A stretch of DNA of 20,000 nucleotides from an uncultured virus (IMG/VR IMGVR_UViG_3300010355_000481). Lineage: Duplodnaviria > Heunggongvirae > Uroviricota > Caudoviricetes > Crassvirales. Positions 3,070 through 13,543 of the stretch are shown one piece after another. The DNA lies in the IMG/VR virus record IMGVR_UViG_3300010355_000481. One strand, 5' to 3'. The notes beneath the pieces are model-generated. The model did no database searches. It saw only the letters and a program-made list of their open reading frames with translations, and had not been told where the DNA came from. Numbering within the stretch: the stretch's first letter is position 1; every line of letters starts with the position of its first letter. A program made the position numbers and the translations under genes.

Positions 3070-3207
3070 TAGGTTATAGCTGAACTGGTTAGAGCATAGC
3101 TTCAAGTGAACGTTGACGATAGTGGTAAAAGACGACAATATCCTGTTCTGGTAGCTATCCAATCAGAAGTACAATGATTGGTGAGGGTTCGAATCCCTCT
3201 AACTTAA
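3070..3207 (+). tRNA. tRNA-like gene with a 51-nt anticodon loop (possible intron; possibly Leu-CAA) and a long variable arm
   Basis: Acceptor TAGGTTA/TAACTTA; D arm TAGCTGAACTGGTTAGAGC; anticodon stem TAGCT/AGCTA; variable stem CCAATCA/TGATTGG; T arm GAGGG-TTCGAAT-CCCTC. Confidence 0.75.
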
Positions 3208-3258: not shown

Positions 3259-3381
3259 TGGGCAGTGGCGAAATTGGTAAACGCACTGGTAAGTGAGTAA
3301 TAGAGTAAGCGTAAAATAGCACTGCTCCGCGCTGGAAGCGTCACGACCGGCATATTGGGGGTTCGAATCCCTCCTCCTGAA
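3259..3381 (+). tRNA. tRNA-like gene with a 55-nt structured anticodon loop; identity not assignable
   Basis: D arm TGGCGAAATTGGTAAACGC; anticodon stem CTGGT/ACCGG; T arm GGGGG-TTCGAAT-CCCTC; imperfect acceptor TGGGCAG/CTCCTGA. Confidence 0.7.
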
Positions 3382-4858: not shown

Positions 4859-5012
4859 ACTTACTTTATGGGAGTATCATCCTCTTATACGTGAAAAAGT
4901 ATCTACAAATGTAGGTAATAAATTAGTTTGGGGGATGGATAATCCTGTTTTTCGTCAAATTAAAATTAACATTCATCTAGGTATATTTATAAACTTAAAA
5001 ACAATAAAATGA
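4845..5012 (+). CDS. mini-protein (55 aa, MKNIKLTLW...) with period-4 hydrophobic pattern
   Basis: Translated by hand; ATGA overlap with 5009. Confidence 0.65.
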   Translation: MKNIKLTLWEYHPLIREKVSTNVGNKLVWGMDNPVFRQIKINIHLGIFINLKTIK

Positions 5013-5569
5013 AACAAACAATATTAGTATGTAGTGATATCTTGACTTCTCATCAAGTATATCATTTAGTAGAAACTTGTAAAAACAAGTTTGAAAGTAT
5101 ACCATTAGAAATAACTTTATTTGATAAAGATGAACCGGTGTTCTTACTTATCCGTAAGGATGAAGAAGAAAAGTTTCATCTTGACGTAATGCCCACTTGT
5201 CGTAATCATCGAGTACCATGGGTACATCCTGAGTATTTTTATACAAATTATGCAGGATTATTGCAATTTTTAGAAGGTATTGTATGGATAGGGGAACATA
5301 AAGGTAATTTCCCAGAAACTCCTAACTATATTGTATGTAAAGGATTAACTCAAAGCTATATTTATTCTCATTATCGCGATATCCCCATGGATAGAGCTGT
5401 AAAAGAAGAATTATGGAATGGGGTTGGATTATGCGATGGTTGGACTTTAGCTTATAACAATAAATACCGACAATTAACGTATGCAAAAGAATTTCCAGGA
5501 ACTACTCTTGAAATGGGTCCTGACGAATTCTATGCTTGTAATTTTACGAAAAAACTAATTATTTCGTAA
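5009..5569 (+). CDS. hypothetical protein
   Basis: 186-aa ORF. Confidence 0.8.
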   Translation: MKQTILVCSDILTSHQVYHLVETCKNKFESIPLEITLFDKDEPVFLLIRKDEEEKFHLDVMPTCRNHRVPWVHPEYFYTNYAGLLQFLEGIVWIGEHKGNFPETPNYIVCKGLTQSYIYSHYRDIPMDRAVKEELWNGVGLCDGWTLAYNNKYRQLTYAKEFPGTTLEMGPDEFYACNFTKKLIIS

Positions 5570-5597
5570 AAAACACAAACTTATTTTTAAATCGTTT

Positions 5598-5638
5598 TTA
5601 AGTGTAGCCTGGCGATAACATCAAAGGGCGGCACTTAA
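5598..5638 (+). promoter_or_regulatory. hairpin carrying the GGCGATAANATCAA loop motif (copy 1)
   Basis: TTAAGTGT-A-GCCT-[GGCGATAACATCAAA]-GGGC-G-GCACTTAA, intergenic. Confidence 0.6.
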
Positions 5639-5661
5639 TACATAAAACTCATAAACAAAAT

Positions 5662-5880
5662 ATGAAAAAACAACATTTATTTTGGCTATTTGGATGCCAT
5701 TGGAAATTAGAATTTTATTGGTTTCTTATTCATCGTGGTATCGAACGCGAAATAGCAGCTCATATGGTCGATATTCATACTCAAGATGAATATTTAATGG
5801 AATATTTAATGCATGTACCTATATGGGAATGGAAAGAGTATACTACGTCAGATAATTATAAAAAATATGTACAATTATGA
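5662..5880 (+). CDS. hypothetical protein (72 aa)
   Basis: ORF track; A-rich leader. Confidence 0.7.
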   Translation: MKKQHLFWLFGCHWKLEFYWFLIHRGIEREIAAHMVDIHTQDEYLMEYLMHVPIWEWKEYTTSDNYKKYVQL

Positions 5881-6062
5881 TAATGTACCTTACATATTGT
5901 TATGAAGCGTATTATGAATACGCAAAATATATCGAAGATACTATATCTGCATTTTTAGCTCATAGCGCTATAAACCAATCTTGGGAAAAACCTACACGTT
6001 TCGTATTAAGTAAAAGCAAATCTACATTCATGTTACGTTACATTAATCTTTTAAAACGATGA
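5877..6062 (+). CDS. mini-protein (61 aa)
   Basis: ORF track; ATGA overlaps at both ends. Confidence 0.6.
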   Translation: MIMYLTYCYEAYYEYAKYIEDTISAFLAHSAINQSWEKPTRFVLSKSKSTFMLRYINLLKR

Positions 6063-6229
6063 TCAGCGTTGCAGGAACTAGCAATATTAAATTAAGCGAT
6101 TTAAGGTTCAATCTTAGAAGTGATATGTATGAAAATGTACATATAATAGTAATTAATAACGCTATGAGTATACATTTTGATATAAAAACTTTAATTAACC
6201 CTATATTAGATGTAATATGGAACACATGA
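6059..6229 (+). CDS. mini-protein (56 aa, MISVAGTSN...)
   Basis: Translated by hand; ATGA overlaps at both ends. Confidence 0.6.
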   Translation: MISVAGTSNIKLSDLRFNLRSDMYENVHIIVINNAMSIHFDIKTLINPILDVIWNT

Positions 6230-6405
6230 AAAACATTAAATGGGAAGTATCTAGAGAATTAATGGATAAAAGAATAGACTTTAGTACGGAAGTCAGAGAA
6301 TCTATAAACAACATAGAACATAGTATTATTACGGTTGGAATAAGAATATATCTTATGGATATTATTACTTTTATGCCTGAAGTAAATAAATGGAATTTTA
6401 AATAA
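6226..6405 (+). CDS. mini-protein (59 aa, MKNIKWEVS...)
   Basis: ATGA-coupled start at 6226 preferred over the track start at 6217. Confidence 0.65.
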   Translation: MKNIKWEVSRELMDKRIDFSTEVRESINNIEHSIITVGIRIYLMDIITFMPEVNKWNFK

Positions 6406-6455
6406 AGTTTTTACTTTAATTTGGTGATTCCAAACACTAGGTGATCTAGGTCAAC

Positions 6456-6486
6456 AAAAAAGGTTATGTTTTTTAACATAAACCTT
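6456..6486 (-). terminator. intrinsic terminator (minus strand)
   Basis: Minus strand reads AAGGTTTATGTT-AAAA-AACATAACCTT then TTTT. Confidence 0.55.
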
Positions 6487-6590
6487 AATTGAAGACACTC
6501 TACCAACTCACCGGAGCCACTGAGGCTGTATATAGTCAAATAGTCCAAAACTACATACATTTAACTTTGCTTCCATGATATCTATAACAC

Positions 6591-6605
6591 CTTGATTTTA
6601 TCGCC
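6591..6605 (-). promoter_or_regulatory. GGCGATAANATCAA loop motif (copy 2, minus strand)
   Basis: Reverse complement is GGCGATAAAATCAAG, enclosed by a CTATAA/TTATAG stem. Confidence 0.55.
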
Positions 6606-6757
6606 TATTTATAGGCATGGGGAGGGGGATTTATAGGTTTATGTCACCATCTTCGGTTGTCTTATCCATCCTTCGAGATAATTTACCCGGTAAGACTACA
6701 TTCTGCTTATTTTCTTCGCCAGAATTGCGCCAGACCACTTCCTAATGTGTTAAACAC

Positions 6758-6783
6758 AAAAAAGCCAGGCATTACACCTGGCT
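6758..6783 (-). terminator. intrinsic terminator (minus strand)
   Basis: Minus strand reads AGCCAGG-TGTAATG-CCTGGC-TTTTTT. Confidence 0.8.
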
Positions 6784-6873
6784 CTTATGTTTTCCAGGTG
6801 GAGAGACTCACCTGAAAATATCGTCGAAGAAAAACTCTTACTATATTAACTGTAAGAGTCTCTCTTTCTTACA
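6758..6873 (-). ncRNA. putative small RNA or attenuator leader of about 115 nt
   Basis: Bounded by a consensus Bacteroidota promoter and a terminator; two hairpins with complementary GAGAGACT/AGTCTCTC loop regions. Confidence 0.6.
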
Positions 6874-6875
6874 AT

Positions 6876-6906
6876 CAAAGGTAAGACAACTTTTAATAAC
6901 AACAAA
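6876..6906 (-). promoter_or_regulatory. Bacteroidota primary-sigma promoter (-33 TTTG, -7 TAnnTTTG)
   Basis: Minus strand TTTG (6906-6903), 19-nt spacer, TACCTTTG (6883-6876). Confidence 0.75.
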
Positions 6907-6933
6907 ATTTATTTAACTTAAAACAAAAAAAAG

Positions 6934-6999
6934 ATGAAAAAACAACTCAAAAAATCGGCAGTACAAACAAACATTGAGTACGAACAGTACTTGTATTAA
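6934..6999 (+). CDS. possible 21-aa peptide MKKQLKKSAVQTNIEYEQYLY
   Basis: A-rich leader (CTTAAAACAAAAAAAAGATG) closely resembles that of the gene at 175. Confidence 0.4.
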   Translation: MKKQLKKSAVQTNIEYEQYLY

Positions 7000-7010
7000 T
7001 TAACCCATAT

Positions 7011-7035
7011 TCCCCGGCGATAATATCAATGGGGA
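7011..7035 (+). promoter_or_regulatory. hairpin carrying the GGCGATAANATCAA loop motif (copy 3)
   Basis: TCCCC-[GGCGATAATATCAAT]-GGGGA, 15 nt upstream of the ATG at 7051. Confidence 0.6.
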
Positions 7036-7050
7036 TATAATTTTCAAAAA

Positions 7051-7288
7051 ATGAAACAATTAAGGTATACAATATACACAACAAAAGCTAATGCTATTAT
7101 ACGTAGTGGTTTAGGTAACGGTTTCCATGAAAGACAAGTTTTTTATCATTATAAAAAAAGAAACAGGAGTTAGTAATATATTTTCACTTATGAGAACTAT
7201 TTTATTTAATGAATTCTCAAAAAAGACAACTACGTATAAACACGAATTTACGTTACAAACCAAACCTCAAGTAAAAATAGTACTATGA
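7051..7288 (+). pseudogene. frameshifted paralog of ORF 7285-7515
   Basis: Frame stops at 7171. Removing one A from the A7 run (7153-7159) gives 78 aa ending YKHEFTLQTKPQVKIVL, versus YKHQFSLQTKEQVKIVL in the next gene. Confidence 0.7.
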
Positions 7289-7515
7289 AACAAACAAAAA
7301 TCCATATAGAATTACTTAAACTTGTACGAATTGTTTATGATTTTACTCAAGTAAGTTTTAAGATTAAATTATTAGCTTTTCAACAAGATAGTTCTTTACT
7401 TATTGTTAATGATATAATGGATGGAATTGTCAACAATGAATGTGAATTAATTGATAATAAGTACAAACACCAGTTTAGTTTACAAACTAAAGAACAGGTA
7501 AAAATCGTATTGTAG
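7285..7515 (+). CDS. small protein (76 aa)
   Basis: ORF track; C-terminus paralogous to the upstream frameshifted copy. Confidence 0.75.
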   Translation: MKQTKIHIELLKLVRIVYDFTQVSFKIKLLAFQQDSSLLIVNDIMDGIVNNECELIDNKYKHQFSLQTKEQVKIVL

Positions 7516-7516
7516 T

Positions 7517-7699
7517 ATGAAAGATATAAAACACCGTATTTATACTAATACGGCAGGAAACATTATTGATGGATTATACCTTATTTGTAATCCTAAAACA
7601 AATTGGGTAATCTGGAACAGATTAGATAGTTATATATGGGTACATATTTACTTTGAAATCAAACAAAATATATTATCACTAATTATTACTAATAGATGA
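7517..7699 (+). CDS. mini-protein (60 aa) with period-4 hydrophobic pattern
   Basis: Residues 4, 8 ... 56 are I,I,T,I,L,C,T,I,L,I,I,I,I,I. Confidence 0.7.
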   Translation: MKDIKHRIYTNTAGNIIDGLYLICNPKTNWVIWNRLDSYIWVHIYFEIKQNILSLIITNR

Positions 7700-7878
7700 G
7701 ATACACTAGTCGAACTATATATGAATTTACGTCAGGAAAGCTTGACCATACTACCGAAAGTGTATTTATTACAAATGTAAGTTGGATGCTTACTTCAACC
7801 ATAAAAACACCATTATGGAGTAGATTAATTACTCTCGTATACATCAATATTTGGCTAAACGTAAAAAATAATATATGA
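7696..7878 (+). CDS. mini-protein (60 aa) with period-4 pattern; paralog of 7517
   Basis: Residues 4, 8 ... 60 are T,I,T,L,T,F,V,L,I,L,L,V,I,V,I; ATGA overlaps. Confidence 0.7.
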   Translation: MRYTSRTIYEFTSGKLDHTTESVFITNVSWMLTSTIKTPLWSRLITLVYINIWLNVKNNI

Positions 7879-8048
7879 AATATATTCGCGTTTATTTAAA
7901 AACAAATACGAAAGAAAGGGTCAATATTGATCATATTTCAGGGTCAATATCAACATATATATGGAGATATGTCGACTATCAATTACATGGTCCACTAACA
8001 TTCCAAATTTTACGTTCAATCTCTTTAACAATTAAAACAAATATATGA
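7875..8048 (+). CDS. mini-protein (57 aa, MKYIRVYLK...)
   Basis: Translated by hand; ATGA overlaps at both ends. Confidence 0.65.
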   Translation: MKYIRVYLKTNTKERVNIDHISGSISTYIWRYVDYQLHGPLTFQILRSISLTIKTNI

Positions 8049-8443
8049 AAAGAAGAAATATCATATTAGGCAGTTTAACTGTCCTATTTATCGTAGGATT
8101 ATTAATCCTTAACCCATTAGCTTCGACAAAAAAACAAATAGTAACTATTTATACGCCAAATGATATCTATTATTTGGATGTAAATACAAATATAGTAACA
8201 TCAGAATCAGGAAAGAAAACTATGTCATGTAAGACTTTAGAAGAAGCTTCGGCATTCTTAAAGATAATCACAGCACATGATGCTAATCAACCTGCCGGAT
8301 GTGTATATAATGATGTAGATGCTATTATCGGAACCCTTAACGGGGATAGAGAAATAGATTCCGTCGTACATCAGTATATTCATTTATACAACATCACCGA
8401 TTCAACACTTATTCGCGAAATTTTAAACCGATATTATTTATGA
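8045..8443 (+). CDS. hypothetical membrane-anchored or exported protein
   Basis: Basic N-terminus followed by a hydrophobic helix; 132 aa. Confidence 0.75.
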   Translation: MKRRNIILGSLTVLFIVGLLILNPLASTKKQIVTIYTPNDIYYLDVNTNIVTSESGKKTMSCKTLEEASAFLKIITAHDANQPAGCVYNDVDAIIGTLNGDREIDSVVHQYIHLYNITDSTLIREILNRYYL

Positions 8444-8718
8444 TACACGATTTCTTTAAATTTATCTTTTATTTTATAGGGTTAGCTCCTATAATGTGGG
8501 AACTTAATGTAATTGCTGAACCTTTAAAAGCTAGAAAATTTATAAAAGCTATGGAAAATATACCATACGAAGATCGTACAGATAATCAAAAGAATTTAAC
8601 TTGGTGTTTAAGTTTGTATATTATTTGGGTATTTATCGTGTTATTATTCATACTTTTAAATACTTATCATTTTAAAATTAATATTTTCGAAGACTTAAAA
8701 TCTTTATTATGGGGTTAG
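8440..8718 (+). CDS. hypothetical membrane protein
   Basis: 92 aa with two hydrophobic segments. Confidence 0.7.
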   Translation: MIHDFFKFIFYFIGLAPIMWELNVIAEPLKARKFIKAMENIPYEDRTDNQKNLTWCLSLYIIWVFIVLLFILLNTYHFKINIFEDLKSLLWG

Positions 8719-10515: not shown

Positions 10516-11047
10516 ACAATTAGAATGGTTACGATCTGGATGTATGGGATGTATGTTTGGTACTGTAATGGCTAAAGATCCTGAAAAAATTGGTTGGCAT
10601 TTTCAAGTCAACCCTAAAAATATCCTGTTTGCCGACGGATGTTGTATTTTATCTTGTATATTCCCTGAATCTGATGCCCGTGGCGTTCTTGCCTGGGCAT
10701 TAGATAATGGGTTCTTTATCGAAGAACTCGGGGATTATATAGGTTTACGATACCGTATCGGTGACAATATTGCTTGGGTGCAGTATTTTGGCCCAGACAG
10801 CCATGTTGCTACTCGACAATCACCTTATCCTATGCTTACATTCACCGTAGCATTACCTAGTGAATATTACTATAAAGTAGGCTTTACTGGTATACTTCAT
10901 TTGGCGCATGCTTCGGTGAAAGCTATAGGACTTAAAGCGAGGAATTTATTATGGGATCGTTCCCATAAATCTTCTCGTAAAATTATCGGACACGAATTAG
11001 GTTTAGCTGAATCTGCTAAAGTTACTTTTATCAAACAAAACGTATGA
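10490..11047 (+). CDS. hypothetical enzyme-like protein with a CxxC motif (start 10490 or 10499)
   Basis: About 185-aa ORF; SGCMGCMFG and FGPDSHVATRQSP motifs. Confidence 0.75.
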   Translation: MKIMKQLHKQLEWLRSGCMGCMFGTVMAKDPEKIGWHFQVNPKNILFADGCCILSCIFPESDARGVLAWALDNGFFIEELGDYIGLRYRIGDNIAWVQYFGPDSHVATRQSPYPMLTFTVALPSEYYYKVGFTGILHLAHASVKAIGLKARNLLWDRSHKSSRKIIGHELGLAESAKVTFIKQNV

Positions 11048-11238
11048 AAAAAGTAAAGGGTCAAATTAAAAATCAAGTTTGGGAGGGAGTTTGGGAGGGA
11101 GTTTGGGATCAAATTAAGGATCAAGCCAAAGGACATATTAGTGATCAAATTTGGTATCAAACTAAAAATCAAGTTTGGGGTGAACGTTGGGGCCAAGTTT
11201 GGAATCAATTTACCTCAATTAAACAAAACATATCATGA
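11044..11238 (+). CDS. QVWx tetrapeptide-repeat mini-protein (64 aa)
   Basis: KNQVWEGVWEGVWDQIKDQ...QVWGERWGQVWNQ; 12-bp DNA repeat GTTTGGGAGGGA. Confidence 0.8.
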   Translation: MKKVKGQIKNQVWEGVWEGVWDQIKDQAKGHISDQIWYQTKNQVWGERWGQVWNQFTSIKQNIS

Positions 11239-12285: not shown

Positions 12286-12387
12286 ATGACAGAAAAGATC
12301 CTTTTAATTGGGCAAGCGTTACCATATAATACGTATCTTTGTAAAAAAAGATCACATGGTATTATTAGAAGAATGGAAAGAAATTAA
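12286..12387 (+). pseudogene. truncated duplicate of the 5' end of the UDG-like gene
   Basis: MTEKILLIGQA versus MTEKILIIGQS at 12843; stops after 33 codons. Confidence 0.7.
12334..12341 (+). promoter_or_regulatory. Bacteroidota -7 promoter element for the HNH gene
   Basis: TATCTTTG 14 nt upstream of the ATG at 12356; no canonical -33 TTTG. Confidence 0.5.
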
Positions 12388-12850
12388 AAATTGTAATGGT
12401 AATTATTTAATTAGCAATTTTGGTAAGGTAAAATCAGTACGTAATAATTTAATTTTAAAAACAAGTCTAGATAAAGATGGATACAATAGATTAAGCTTAC
12501 GTAATAAAAATAAACCTATTTATTGTAGAATTAGTAAATTAGTTGCTACTTATTTTGTCCCTAACCCTGATAATTTGACTATAGTTAATCATATAGATAA
12601 TACAAGAAATAATGATATTTTTACTAATTTGGAATGGGTCTCTGTTAGAGAAAATACTTGTCACGGTATAAAATTAAATAAAAAATTACCAATAGGCGTA
12701 TCAAAAAGACCTAAACAAAATAAATATCGAGCAAGAATTGAAATTAATCGTAAATCAATTTCTTTAGGAGATTTTAATACTCCTGAAGAAGCATCTGAAG
12801 CTTATAAAAAAGCTTTACAAACCTATAAAATCAAAAACAAATATGACTGA
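12356..12850 (+). CDS. NUMOD4-HNH-AP2 homing endonuclease
   Basis: EEWKEIK...YLISNFGKVKS (NUMOD4); VNHIDNTRNNDIFTNLEWVSVREN (HNH); GVSKR...YRARI...LGDFNTPEEASEAY (AP2); ATG at 12356 preferred. Confidence 0.9.
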   Translation: MVLLEEWKEIKNCNGNYLISNFGKVKSVRNNLILKTSLDKDGYNRLSLRNKNKPIYCRISKLVATYFVPNPDNLTIVNHIDNTRNNDIFTNLEWVSVRENTCHGIKLNKKLPIGVSKRPKQNKYRARIEINRKSISLGDFNTPEEASEAYKKALQTYKIKNKYD

Positions 12851-13283: not shown

Positions 13284-13543
13284 GCAATTTATTGTTTGGT
13301 AAACCCAGACAAGGATATCCTTTAAAACCAATAGTGGCTACATGTCCTCGCCAAATATCCGAAACATCATTCAATGAATGGGTTAAGGAATTCAAAGTAG
13401 GCTCATTATTTAATCACGAAGAATCACACGAAACATGCGAAAGACTGAAGATTTTAAAATTCCAGCGAGGACTTTTAAAGAAGGAGCTAAGTCATATACT
13501 CACAAACCCTCCCAAAAGTATCTTGACAGAAGGGCAGAGTTAG
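13271..13543 (+). CDS. hypothetical protein
   Basis: 90-aa ORF; its 3' part overlaps another ORF. Confidence 0.55.
   Translation: MGLLSNLLFGKPRQGYPLKPIVATCPRQISETSFNEWVKEFKVGSLFNHEESHETCERLKILKFQRGLLKKELSHILTNPPKSILTEGQS

Follow-up and report, generated by a model that had tools for sequence, protein, structure and literature searches.

Several described transcription signals offer points of comparison for a 14-base motif, GGCGATAANATCAA, that recurs three times in a 20-kb stretch of the uncultured Crassvirales virus IMGVR_UViG_3300010355_000481 (the whole 20,000 nucleotides (nt) analysed here, hereafter the window). The boxB element of the lambdoid nut sites combines a short stem with a GNRA-like pentaloop of about 5 nt, the loop being specific to a lineage and its N protein. 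The put RNAs of phage HK022 are cis-acting leader RNAs, present in two copies per genome and oriented with the early operons, that act on the host machine without any phage protein; each adopts a two-stem structure of about 70 nt. T7-type promoter sets comprise a polymerase gene and numerous near-identical sites, each of about 23 bp, placed ahead of genes. Three further systems come from published accounts. The promoters of the N4 virion RNA polymerase are described as three early hairpins with a 5-7 bp stem and a 3-nt loop, extruded from supercoiled DNA (PMC4496689). The 12-base ops element (GGCGGTAGCGTG) is placed in operon leaders, on one strand and once per operon, where RfaH reads a small hairpin of the non-template strand, contacting G5 and T6, with a C3:G8 pair (PMC5995543). 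The PeSL of T4-type phages is presented as a stem-loop adjoining a sigma-70-type promoter with a -35/-10 pair (PMC4122927).

We propose, with a probability of roughly one in two, that the window motif is carried by a sense-strand RNA hairpin located in leaders and gene junctions, the loop of which would serve for recognition and would affect read-through, processing or stability. Judged from sequence, the 15-base tip on differing stems is probably an undescribed RNA signal, and the three copies may well belong to a previously uncatalogued family of sense-strand phage RNA hairpins.

The motif and its stems in the window

GGCGATAANATCAA occurs exactly at 5611-5624 (+), 6592-6605 (-) and 7016-7029 (+), the sole difference between the copies being at base 9, just as an initial account made from the letters and ORF list of the window (the sequence-only reading) had it. 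Conservation reaches slightly beyond the 14-mer, as GGCGATAANATCAA-N-G-N-G, and the motif is all-or-none: the 20 kb contain no further match even when up to 3 mismatches are allowed. A look-elsewhere test admitted every 14-mer that contained at least 5 G/C, was free to vary in a single column and had three copies, on either strand, that did not overlap; such a triple arose in 1 of 300 dinucleotide shuffles, and the real window has exactly one, which is this motif. The test is much weaker without the G/C filter, a triple then appearing in 12 of 60 shuffles. A blind search for repeated 12-mers in the approximately 1.9 kb of window DNA free of open reading frames (ORFs) returned the motif as its sole result. 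The three copies are arranged as follows.

5598-5638, + strand: hairpin of copy 1, with 5' arm 5598-5610, loop 5611-5625 (GGCGATAACATCAAA) and 3' arm 5626-5638
6582-6614, - strand: copy 2, with loop 6605-6591 (GGCGATAAAATCAAG) and six A/U-rich pairs (6614-6609 with 6587-6582) set back 3 nt
7007-7038, + strand: hairpin of copy 3, with 5' arm 7007-7015 (one bulge), loop 7016-7030 (GGCGATAATATCAAT) and 3' arm 7031-7038, then AATTTTC

All three copies lie outside ORFs of at least 45 amino acids (aa), copy 2 overlapping only frames of 22-49 aa, and each is co-oriented with the unit that follows it. Copy 1 falls between two + strand ORFs, 41 nt past the stop of ORF 5009-5569 and, counted from the end of the 14-mer, 37 nt before the next same-strand ATG at 5662. 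Copy 2 precedes a short - strand unit terminated by a hairpin and T-run near 6480-6455. Copy 3 is downstream of a hairpin (6760-6786) scored as terminator-like on both strands and, by the same count, 21 nt ahead of the ATG at 7051, with which a long + strand run begins. The intergenic placement of all copies and the position of the two + strand copies just upstream of gene runs, both proposed in the sequence-only reading, are thus borne out.

That reading also enclosed every copy in a stem, which is beyond chance for the two + strand copies only. When flank-against-flank duplex energies were compared with those at 13,304 window positions, copy 1 reached -15.6 kcal/mol (fraction 7.5e-5) and copy 3 -9.9 kcal/mol (0.009), while copy 2, at -4.4 kcal/mol (0.20), was not beyond chance; its minimum-energy fold leaves the motif unenclosed, and it is in register with the family alignment described below. 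The RNA fold of copy 1 (-16.2 kcal/mol, z -3.59) is equalled in 0 of 200 shuffles, and the sense strand folds better by 4.6 kcal/mol than the antisense strand (-11.6 kcal/mol). The fold of copy 3 comes to -9.7 kcal/mol (z -0.44). As DNA, the hairpins of copies 1-3 are weak, at -7.2, -4.0 and -4.5 kcal/mol (z -1.95, -0.39 and +0.19).

Near-identical strains of the window phage are present in wastewater sequencing runs. Among the 14 of 15 differences listed for 5306-5893 in the strain of run X2, none falls within 5507-5781, which includes copy 1. In run X6, a contig covering 6269-6757 has 3 differences, all outside copy 2, and one covering 6784-7112 has a sole substitution, G7016A, at loop base 1 of copy 3. 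This change would turn a possible G.U closing pair into A-U.

A family of hairpins in unrelated phages

Scanning IMG/VR with an 18-base degenerate pattern gave 32 singleton matches, and a second, complementary pattern gave at least 116. Most are chance-like, lying in long open frames of contigs with higher guanine plus cytosine (G+C) content; a minority are non-coding and have complementary flanks of new sequence. Among the matches listed, flank duplexes of -10 kcal/mol or lower occur at 15 of 118 distinct sites, as against 94 of 2360 same-locus control positions (odds ratio 3.5, p = 1.4e-4). The carriers outside the window, with 1-3 copies per contig, are these.

G006, phage contig: three copies in 2.4 kb, one of them bearing a C3-to-A change
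G005, phage contig: one copy
G007, complete genome (32.8 kb, terminal repeats): one copy
G011, G012 and G013, relatives of G007: one copy each
G008 and G010, phage contigs: one copy each
G015 contig C116, 44 kb, in a bacterial assembly, with phage-type genes and Bacteroidota-type promoter-like boxes: three loop copies

The last of these came from a 17-mer scan of bacterial assemblies, which gave at least 120 loci; almost all of them are genic, the motif being read there as G-D-N-I-N. Among the bacterial loci listed, the 30 best flank energies are all in frames of at least 107 aa, and only L417 (G015) is of the hairpin type. A wide presence of the element in bacterial genomes was therefore dropped, the listed loci lying nearly all within long open frames. 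In the G015 contig the copies occupy a 1.08 kb non-coding stretch (L431 2190-3272, -) between a gene of 419 aa and a small helix-turn-helix gene; this stretch comprises seven hairpin-plus-T-run units in series, three of which bear the motif loop, two of these with single changes. G014, L246 and L282 were kept apart as doubtful members, having poor flanks or lying within long open frames.

An all-against-all protein comparison separates the carriers into the window, G005 with G006 (one weak match), G007 with G011-G013, G008, G009 and G010, and no protein is common to different groups. G007 and G011-G013 have 24 proteins in common, in syntenic order. Homology of the ORFs downstream of the G007 and G013 hairpins was not upheld (BLASTP only E = 0.13), and the argument for relatedness is therefore placed on synteny. 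The carriers span 24-50% G+C, and Shine-Dalgarno-type leaders are present in some and lacking in others.

Anchoring the alignment on the loop leaves no gap in any copy, and the 15-nt loop is present in each of the 16 aligned copies, which come from at least seven unrelated contig groups. Across the seven pairs adjoining the loop, 91.1% of cells are paired, a figure inflated because most outside members were chosen partly for pairing flanks. None of 500 shuffles is as well paired (50.6 +/- 3.8), and sliding the partners gives 40-47%. Each of the seven pairs changes on both sides, with a covariation score of 1.025 versus 0.264 over the 16 copies. A looser set that includes the three doubtful members shows the same pattern, more weakly. 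Four copies were found by the motif alone, regardless of their flanks (G006b, G006c, G015A and G015C), and all four have stems. Between G007 and G011-G013 all 15 loop bases are kept, and the stem GCTCCC/GGGAGC becomes GCGGCC/GGCCGC, which amounts to two compensatory pairs. The 144 stem cells contain 12 G.U against 5 A.C combinations, placing the wobble on the sense strand, and the closing pair is U.G in 4 of the 16 copies.

The covarying stem, the compensatory exchange, the G.U bias, the better sense fold of copy 1 and the weak DNA folds together favour a sense-strand RNA hairpin. The suggestion in the sequence-only reading that a conserved loop on a variable stem marks an RNA element stands as regards structure, and is backed far better by the 16-copy family than by the window alone. 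Position and orientation belong, with the motif, its non-random occurrence, the covarying stem and the strand bias, to the observed side of the case: at 11 of 14 sites a same-strand ORF of at least 40 aa begins 16-61 nt downstream of the motif, which, with the co-orientation of the window copies, is the sense leader position of nut-type sites. In every case the element runs in the direction of its neighbouring genes. The distance from the upstream ORF to the motif ranges from 16 to 341 nt, and the hairpins of G006 sit at gene junctions.

Searches of existing catalogues gave no counterpart. Rfam 15 has no match at the motif sites at E <=1 for the window, <=0.1 for 6 loci and <=10 for 13 loci. 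Five 14-base motif strings (three sense DNA variants, one RNA and one reverse complement) were not found in the collection of papers searched, where 8-mer matches were unrelated. A covariance model run on 612 kb gave nothing new, returning only 13 of its training copies, a tRNA-like site discussed below (18.7 bits) and two matches near E = 1. The variable loop positions mostly fall at every third base, in a frame that reads G-D-N-I-N/K. A coding signal was considered and rejected: 13 of 19 copies have no upstream in-frame start codon, and the open frames are short.

Tails and transcript ends

The 9 nt past the stem include 5 or more T in 8 of 19 copies; in total, T makes up 72 of the 171 tail bases, the background fraction being 0.21-0.38; in the window the 9-nt tails contain 4 T (copy 3), 3 (copy 2) and 1 (copy 1). 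Such tails, together with the many GC-rich stems, are what one would see if the hairpins simply ended the upstream unit, as ordinary factor-independent terminators or as 3'-end structures, with a tip conserved by folding or descent and read by nothing. Consistent with this, the G006 and G005 hairpins begin 16-22 nt past a stop codon, and the three G015 copies stand among four other hairpin-plus-T-run units. However, a loop of 15 nt is far outside the 3-8 nt of the terminator scan and weakens the hairpin, and there is no T-run at window copies 1 and 2 or in G010. Moreover, the loop is identical across phages without a common protein, and in G007 and G011-G013 despite diverged stems and flanks. 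This constancy across diverged stems and unrelated carriers makes descent alone insufficient as an explanation, and we consider it unlikely that these are merely the ends of upstream transcripts.

One further observation concerns a gene junction of G006. At L171 4287-4374 (-) there is a match to the RAGATH-1 hammerhead-like model at 43.6 bits, below the cut-off of 56.3; the leader downstream of it is shared with one of the motif hairpins, and the junction is equivalent to the hairpin sites.

Signals at the DNA level

The motif could instead operate as DNA, either as a promoter for a phage-specified polymerase or sigma factor, perhaps through an extruded hairpin as in N4, or as the operator of a regulator. 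It is information-rich, asymmetric, all-or-none and co-oriented with downstream units, and copies 2 and 3 each lie between a terminator-like hairpin and the next unit. The + strand of the window has no match to a strict Bacteroidota-type promoter pattern, and N4 likewise has three early hairpin promoters (PMC4496689). Relatives in a broad sense point the same way. An alignment-based scan of IMG/VR gave 20 loci that have only a pair of genes, of 323 aa and 127 aa, in common with the window, and 3 of 5 distant contigs with this pair encode sigma-70-family proteins. One of these contigs, L134, has a dense promoter-like repeat. Against a DNA signal, the hairpins are weak as DNA (z -1.95 or weaker) and the wobble pairs favour one strand. 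The complete 32.8 kb genome of G007 and two of its relatives, 82-90% complete, have a single exact copy each and no copies with 1-2 mismatches, and a second conserved promoter block was not found beside the motif. The carriers have no protein in common, and a polymerase of the PF00940 family matched in 0 of 10 records, in a search whose control was silent too. These points leave a DNA-level signal distinctly unlikely, and they disfavour the hairpin promoter for a phage polymerase put forward in the sequence-only reading: the DNA folds are weak, a complete genome and two of its 82-90% complete relatives have single copies, and a T7-type polymerase was not found in carriers by the search with the silent control. 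A sigma-70-type or Bacteroidota-type promoter overlapping the motif was set aside as well, there being no consistent spacing to a -10-like or -7-like box; in the interval 5000-8000, sigma-70-like matches number 20, against 20.1 in shuffles.

The repeat of L134 (20.6 kb) is of interest in itself. It comprises 18 + strand copies of TGTAACAT ahead of small genes, most of them followed 15-17 nt later by a box resembling CGTATAAT, in a bipartite, promoter-like arrangement that differs from the motif; one copy is inside an 8-bp hairpin and one follows a terminator, and the contig encodes a sigma-70-family protein. Together with the sigma-70-family proteins of the gene-pair contigs, it indicates that phage-specific transcription signals exist in this broad group.

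Proposed action of the loop and its reader

In the mechanism that we favour, a sense-strand RNA hairpin read at its loop, transcription of the hairpin would expose a free-sequence stem of 5-12 bp displaying the invariant 15-nt apical module GGCGAYARNAUCAAN, which is predicted to be capable of folding into a 3-bp GAU/AUC mini-stem with a 3-nt tip. The module would be recognized by a trans-acting factor encoded away from the hairpin, whether a protein or a second RNA. Binding to the loop would then decide the fate of the transcript at the entry of the downstream unit. The consequence would most likely be a choice between read-through and termination, a preference that derives from the many copies with a U-rich tail; the alternative outcome would be processing or protection of the mRNA end.

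As to the reader, the loop is carried by unrelated phages, raising the possibility that a conserved host component recognizes it. The absence of any protein common to the contig groups fits a host-encoded or otherwise unlinked reader, and an identical loop across phages of 24-50% G+C points to a common and probably host-encoded one. A phage NusG paralogue and a T7-type polymerase were both dropped as readers, neither being found in the carriers: the NusG N-terminal domain was not found in 5 motif-bearing phage records, with a control positive in 10 of 14 genomes, and the polymerase search is the one whose control was silent. A boxA-like partner after the hairpin was likewise dropped, the A/T-rich leaders being uninformative.

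A bolder version of the idea, which we regard as unlikely, is that the loop is a cross-phylum phage RNA "address tag" read directly by a universally conserved host machine and not by a phage protein. It could take the form of a put-like module that would reprogram RNA polymerase at the entry of gene runs. Alternatively, it could be a T-box-like or kissing element, whose apical triplet would dock to the anticodon loop of a tRNA; in 14 of the 16 well-stemmed aligned copies this triplet is either AAC or AAU. In such a scheme, the same 15-mer standing beside the T arm of a tRNA-like RNA would be the natural partner or a model of the interaction.

An RNA of this kind is present at L175 4139-4228 (-) and L159 276-365 (-). 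It resembles a tRNA without a D arm, ends in CCA and carries TCT in a 7-nt anticodon-like loop; the same 15-mer immediately adjoins its T arm on the 5' side. Between the two contigs the acceptor and anticodon-like stems covary, 8 of the 27 pairs having compensatory changes. The juxtaposition may be due to chance, approximately one non-coding chance match being expected among the scan results, or it may be a clue to the reader.

A number of observations weigh against a hairpin read at its loop. Copy 2 lacks a convincing stem, and the pairing of the outside members partly reflects how they were chosen. The natural change G7016A in one wastewater strain implies that the loop is not absolutely fixed. 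A U-rich tail is present in only 8 of 19 copies, and at neither copy 1 nor copy 2 of the window. The next ORF of at least 40 aa is 177 nt away in G005 and 412 nt in G012, the G008 copy is at a contig end, and the three G015 copies are at least 290 nt from the next ORF. No reader candidate was found among the T7-type polymerases and NusG-type domains looked for in carriers, and of the sequencing runs listed as carrying the region none is recorded as RNA and one is possibly RNA. Finally, the motif is absent from the Cellulophaga phage phi17:2 and, at up to 1 mismatch, from the 20 gene-pair loci.

Gene control in the phages of Bacteroidota and of other uncultured hosts is almost unmapped, and conserved cis elements are a rare culture-free handle on it. 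The hairpin could act as bait to find its reader. Should it gate read-through or the fate of the mRNA where early gene runs begin, the element would amount to a small and portable regulatory part, and it would also mark the boundaries of transcription units in metagenomic phage genomes. If it is only a terminator variant, it would be a modest addition to the catalogue of RNA motifs.

Genomic setting and neighbouring features

The window has 30% G+C and a dense array of small + strand ORFs with A-rich leaders and without Shine-Dalgarno sequences. Few products belong to recognizable families, among them an SPFH-like lipoprotein, uracil-DNA glycosylase, RNase H and an HNH/AP2 homing endonuclease, and 55 small ORFs matched no family, in scans to which small arginine-rich proteins are invisible. 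In our reading, the window represents the early and plastic part of the genome of a large phage whose host is of the Bacteroidota type. The features next to the motif, and the endonuclease, are as follows.

5662-6405, + strand: four small ORFs after copy 1, of 72, 61, 56 and 62 aa, with no Pfam or PHROG family
7051-8718, + strand: start of the gene run after copy 3, from ORF lists, with no Pfam family
12308-12850: HNH homing endonuclease, by family match

The only named relatives are the Cellulophaga phages phi17:2 and phi4:1, with approximately 47% identity across two proteins. A metagenome scan gave an identical 18.4 kb contig from activated sludge and one remote match without the motif. GenBank phages have no DNA near-identical to the window, the exact 23-mer of copy 3 was not found in IMG/VR, protein-guided IMG/VR searches with three single window proteins as queries gave no relatives, and a first scan of genome contigs for relatives gave no match.

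The plasticity of the region bears on the question of whether the motif is a footprint or target of DNA mobility, that is, a cassette boundary or recombination site in a hyperplastic region in the manner of PeSL, or the target or scar of a mobile element. The region is made of ORFan mini-genes, the homing endonuclease lies at 12308-12850, and wastewater strains have indels near copy 1: in X4, 11 nt stand in place of 5540-5586; in X6, one contig departs from the window sequence past 5674; and X2 lacks 5894-6214, which comprises two mini-genes. But the X2 deletion is not located at the motif, and PeSL is a stem-loop followed by a sigma-70-type promoter, whereas here the loop is conserved and promoter hexamers are not. 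Further, the compensatory stem changes and sense-strand wobble pairs point to selection on a folded strand, and an origin in DNA mobility seems very improbable. Over 6215-6999 the X2 strain shows 55 differences and 7 gaps.

Copies 2 and 3 point away from each other over a 410-nt ORF-poor stretch that has features of its own. A Bacteroidota-type promoter box lies there on the - strand at about 6906-6876. The segment 6752-6910 (-) consists of a TTTG-N19-TACCTTTG box and then a 121-nt RNA candidate, from 6872 to 6752 (-), with three hairpins (minimum free energy -50.3 kcal/mol, z -7.9), ending in a hairpin and T-run at 6786-6760. On these sequence features, it is likely to be a phage small RNA within an otherwise + strand gene array. 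A second structured unit lies downstream of copy 2, at 6450-6590 (-) (z about -2.9), with frames of 22-49 aa only, an TAGTTTTG box at 6553-6546 and a hairpin and T-run near 6480-6455.

Elsewhere in the window, two tRNA-like genes at 3070-3207 and 3259-3381 (+) score 38.7 and 24.5 bits with the Rfam tRNA model, and ARAGORN detects neither. Each has an insert of 51-57 nt in the anticodon-loop region, the first also having a variable arm of about 22 nt; inserts so short are unusual in bacterial or phage tRNA genes. Within ORF 11044-11238 there is a tandem repeat with a 12-nt period (11049-11212), and its product matches a repeat-rich frame in L137.

Comparison with described systems

T7-type promoter sets differ from the hairpins described here, which number 1-3 per contig, with one exact copy in a complete 32.8 kb genome. 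The N4 promoters resemble these hairpins in that there are three copies in an early region, with conserved bases set within otherwise variable inverted repeats. They differ in their extrudable hairpins of 5-7 bp and 3 nt, as against a loop of 15 nt, weak DNA folds and strand-biased wobble in the present case. Like the PeSL, the motif is a short conserved intergenic module among ORFan mini-genes in a plastic early region. Unlike it, the conserved block is the loop itself, and no conserved hexamers adjoin it.

The likeness to ops calls for separate consideration, since the motif might be an ops-like recruitment site. It starts GGCG.TA and matches 7 of the 12 positions of ops12 (1-4, 6, 7 and 11); both are leader sites, strand-specific and of low copy number, and a mini-hairpin is possible in both. 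The likeness is nonetheless modest and was noticed post hoc. G5, G8, G10 and G12 differ, the bases contacted by RfaH or forming the C3:G8 pair being changed (G5 to A and G8 to A), and TG at the end of the pause is TC. Covarying 7-bp stems on both sides of the motif have no role in the ops mechanism, which requires no flanking stems, and the bubble of 10-11 nt (PMC5995543) is much shorter than the complete hairpin. With the NusG N-terminal domain not found in the 5 motif-bearing phage records, under the positive control noted above (10 of 14 genomes), recruitment of an ops type seems very doubtful.

Two leader RNAs, boxB and put, also offer parallels to a sense-strand hairpin read at its loop. 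Like boxB, the hairpin is small, lies on the sense strand in early leaders and occurs in few copies per genome; in boxB the stem is likewise free in sequence, and a factor reads the loop. It departs from boxB in the size of the loop, 15 nt as against a pentaloop of about 5 nt, and in that the loop is common to phages without a common protein. Compared with put, with its two stems and about 70 nt, it is a single hairpin, and contact with RNA polymerase would be by analogy only; a put-like action on a conserved host machine would, for its part, explain the conservation of the motif across hosts.

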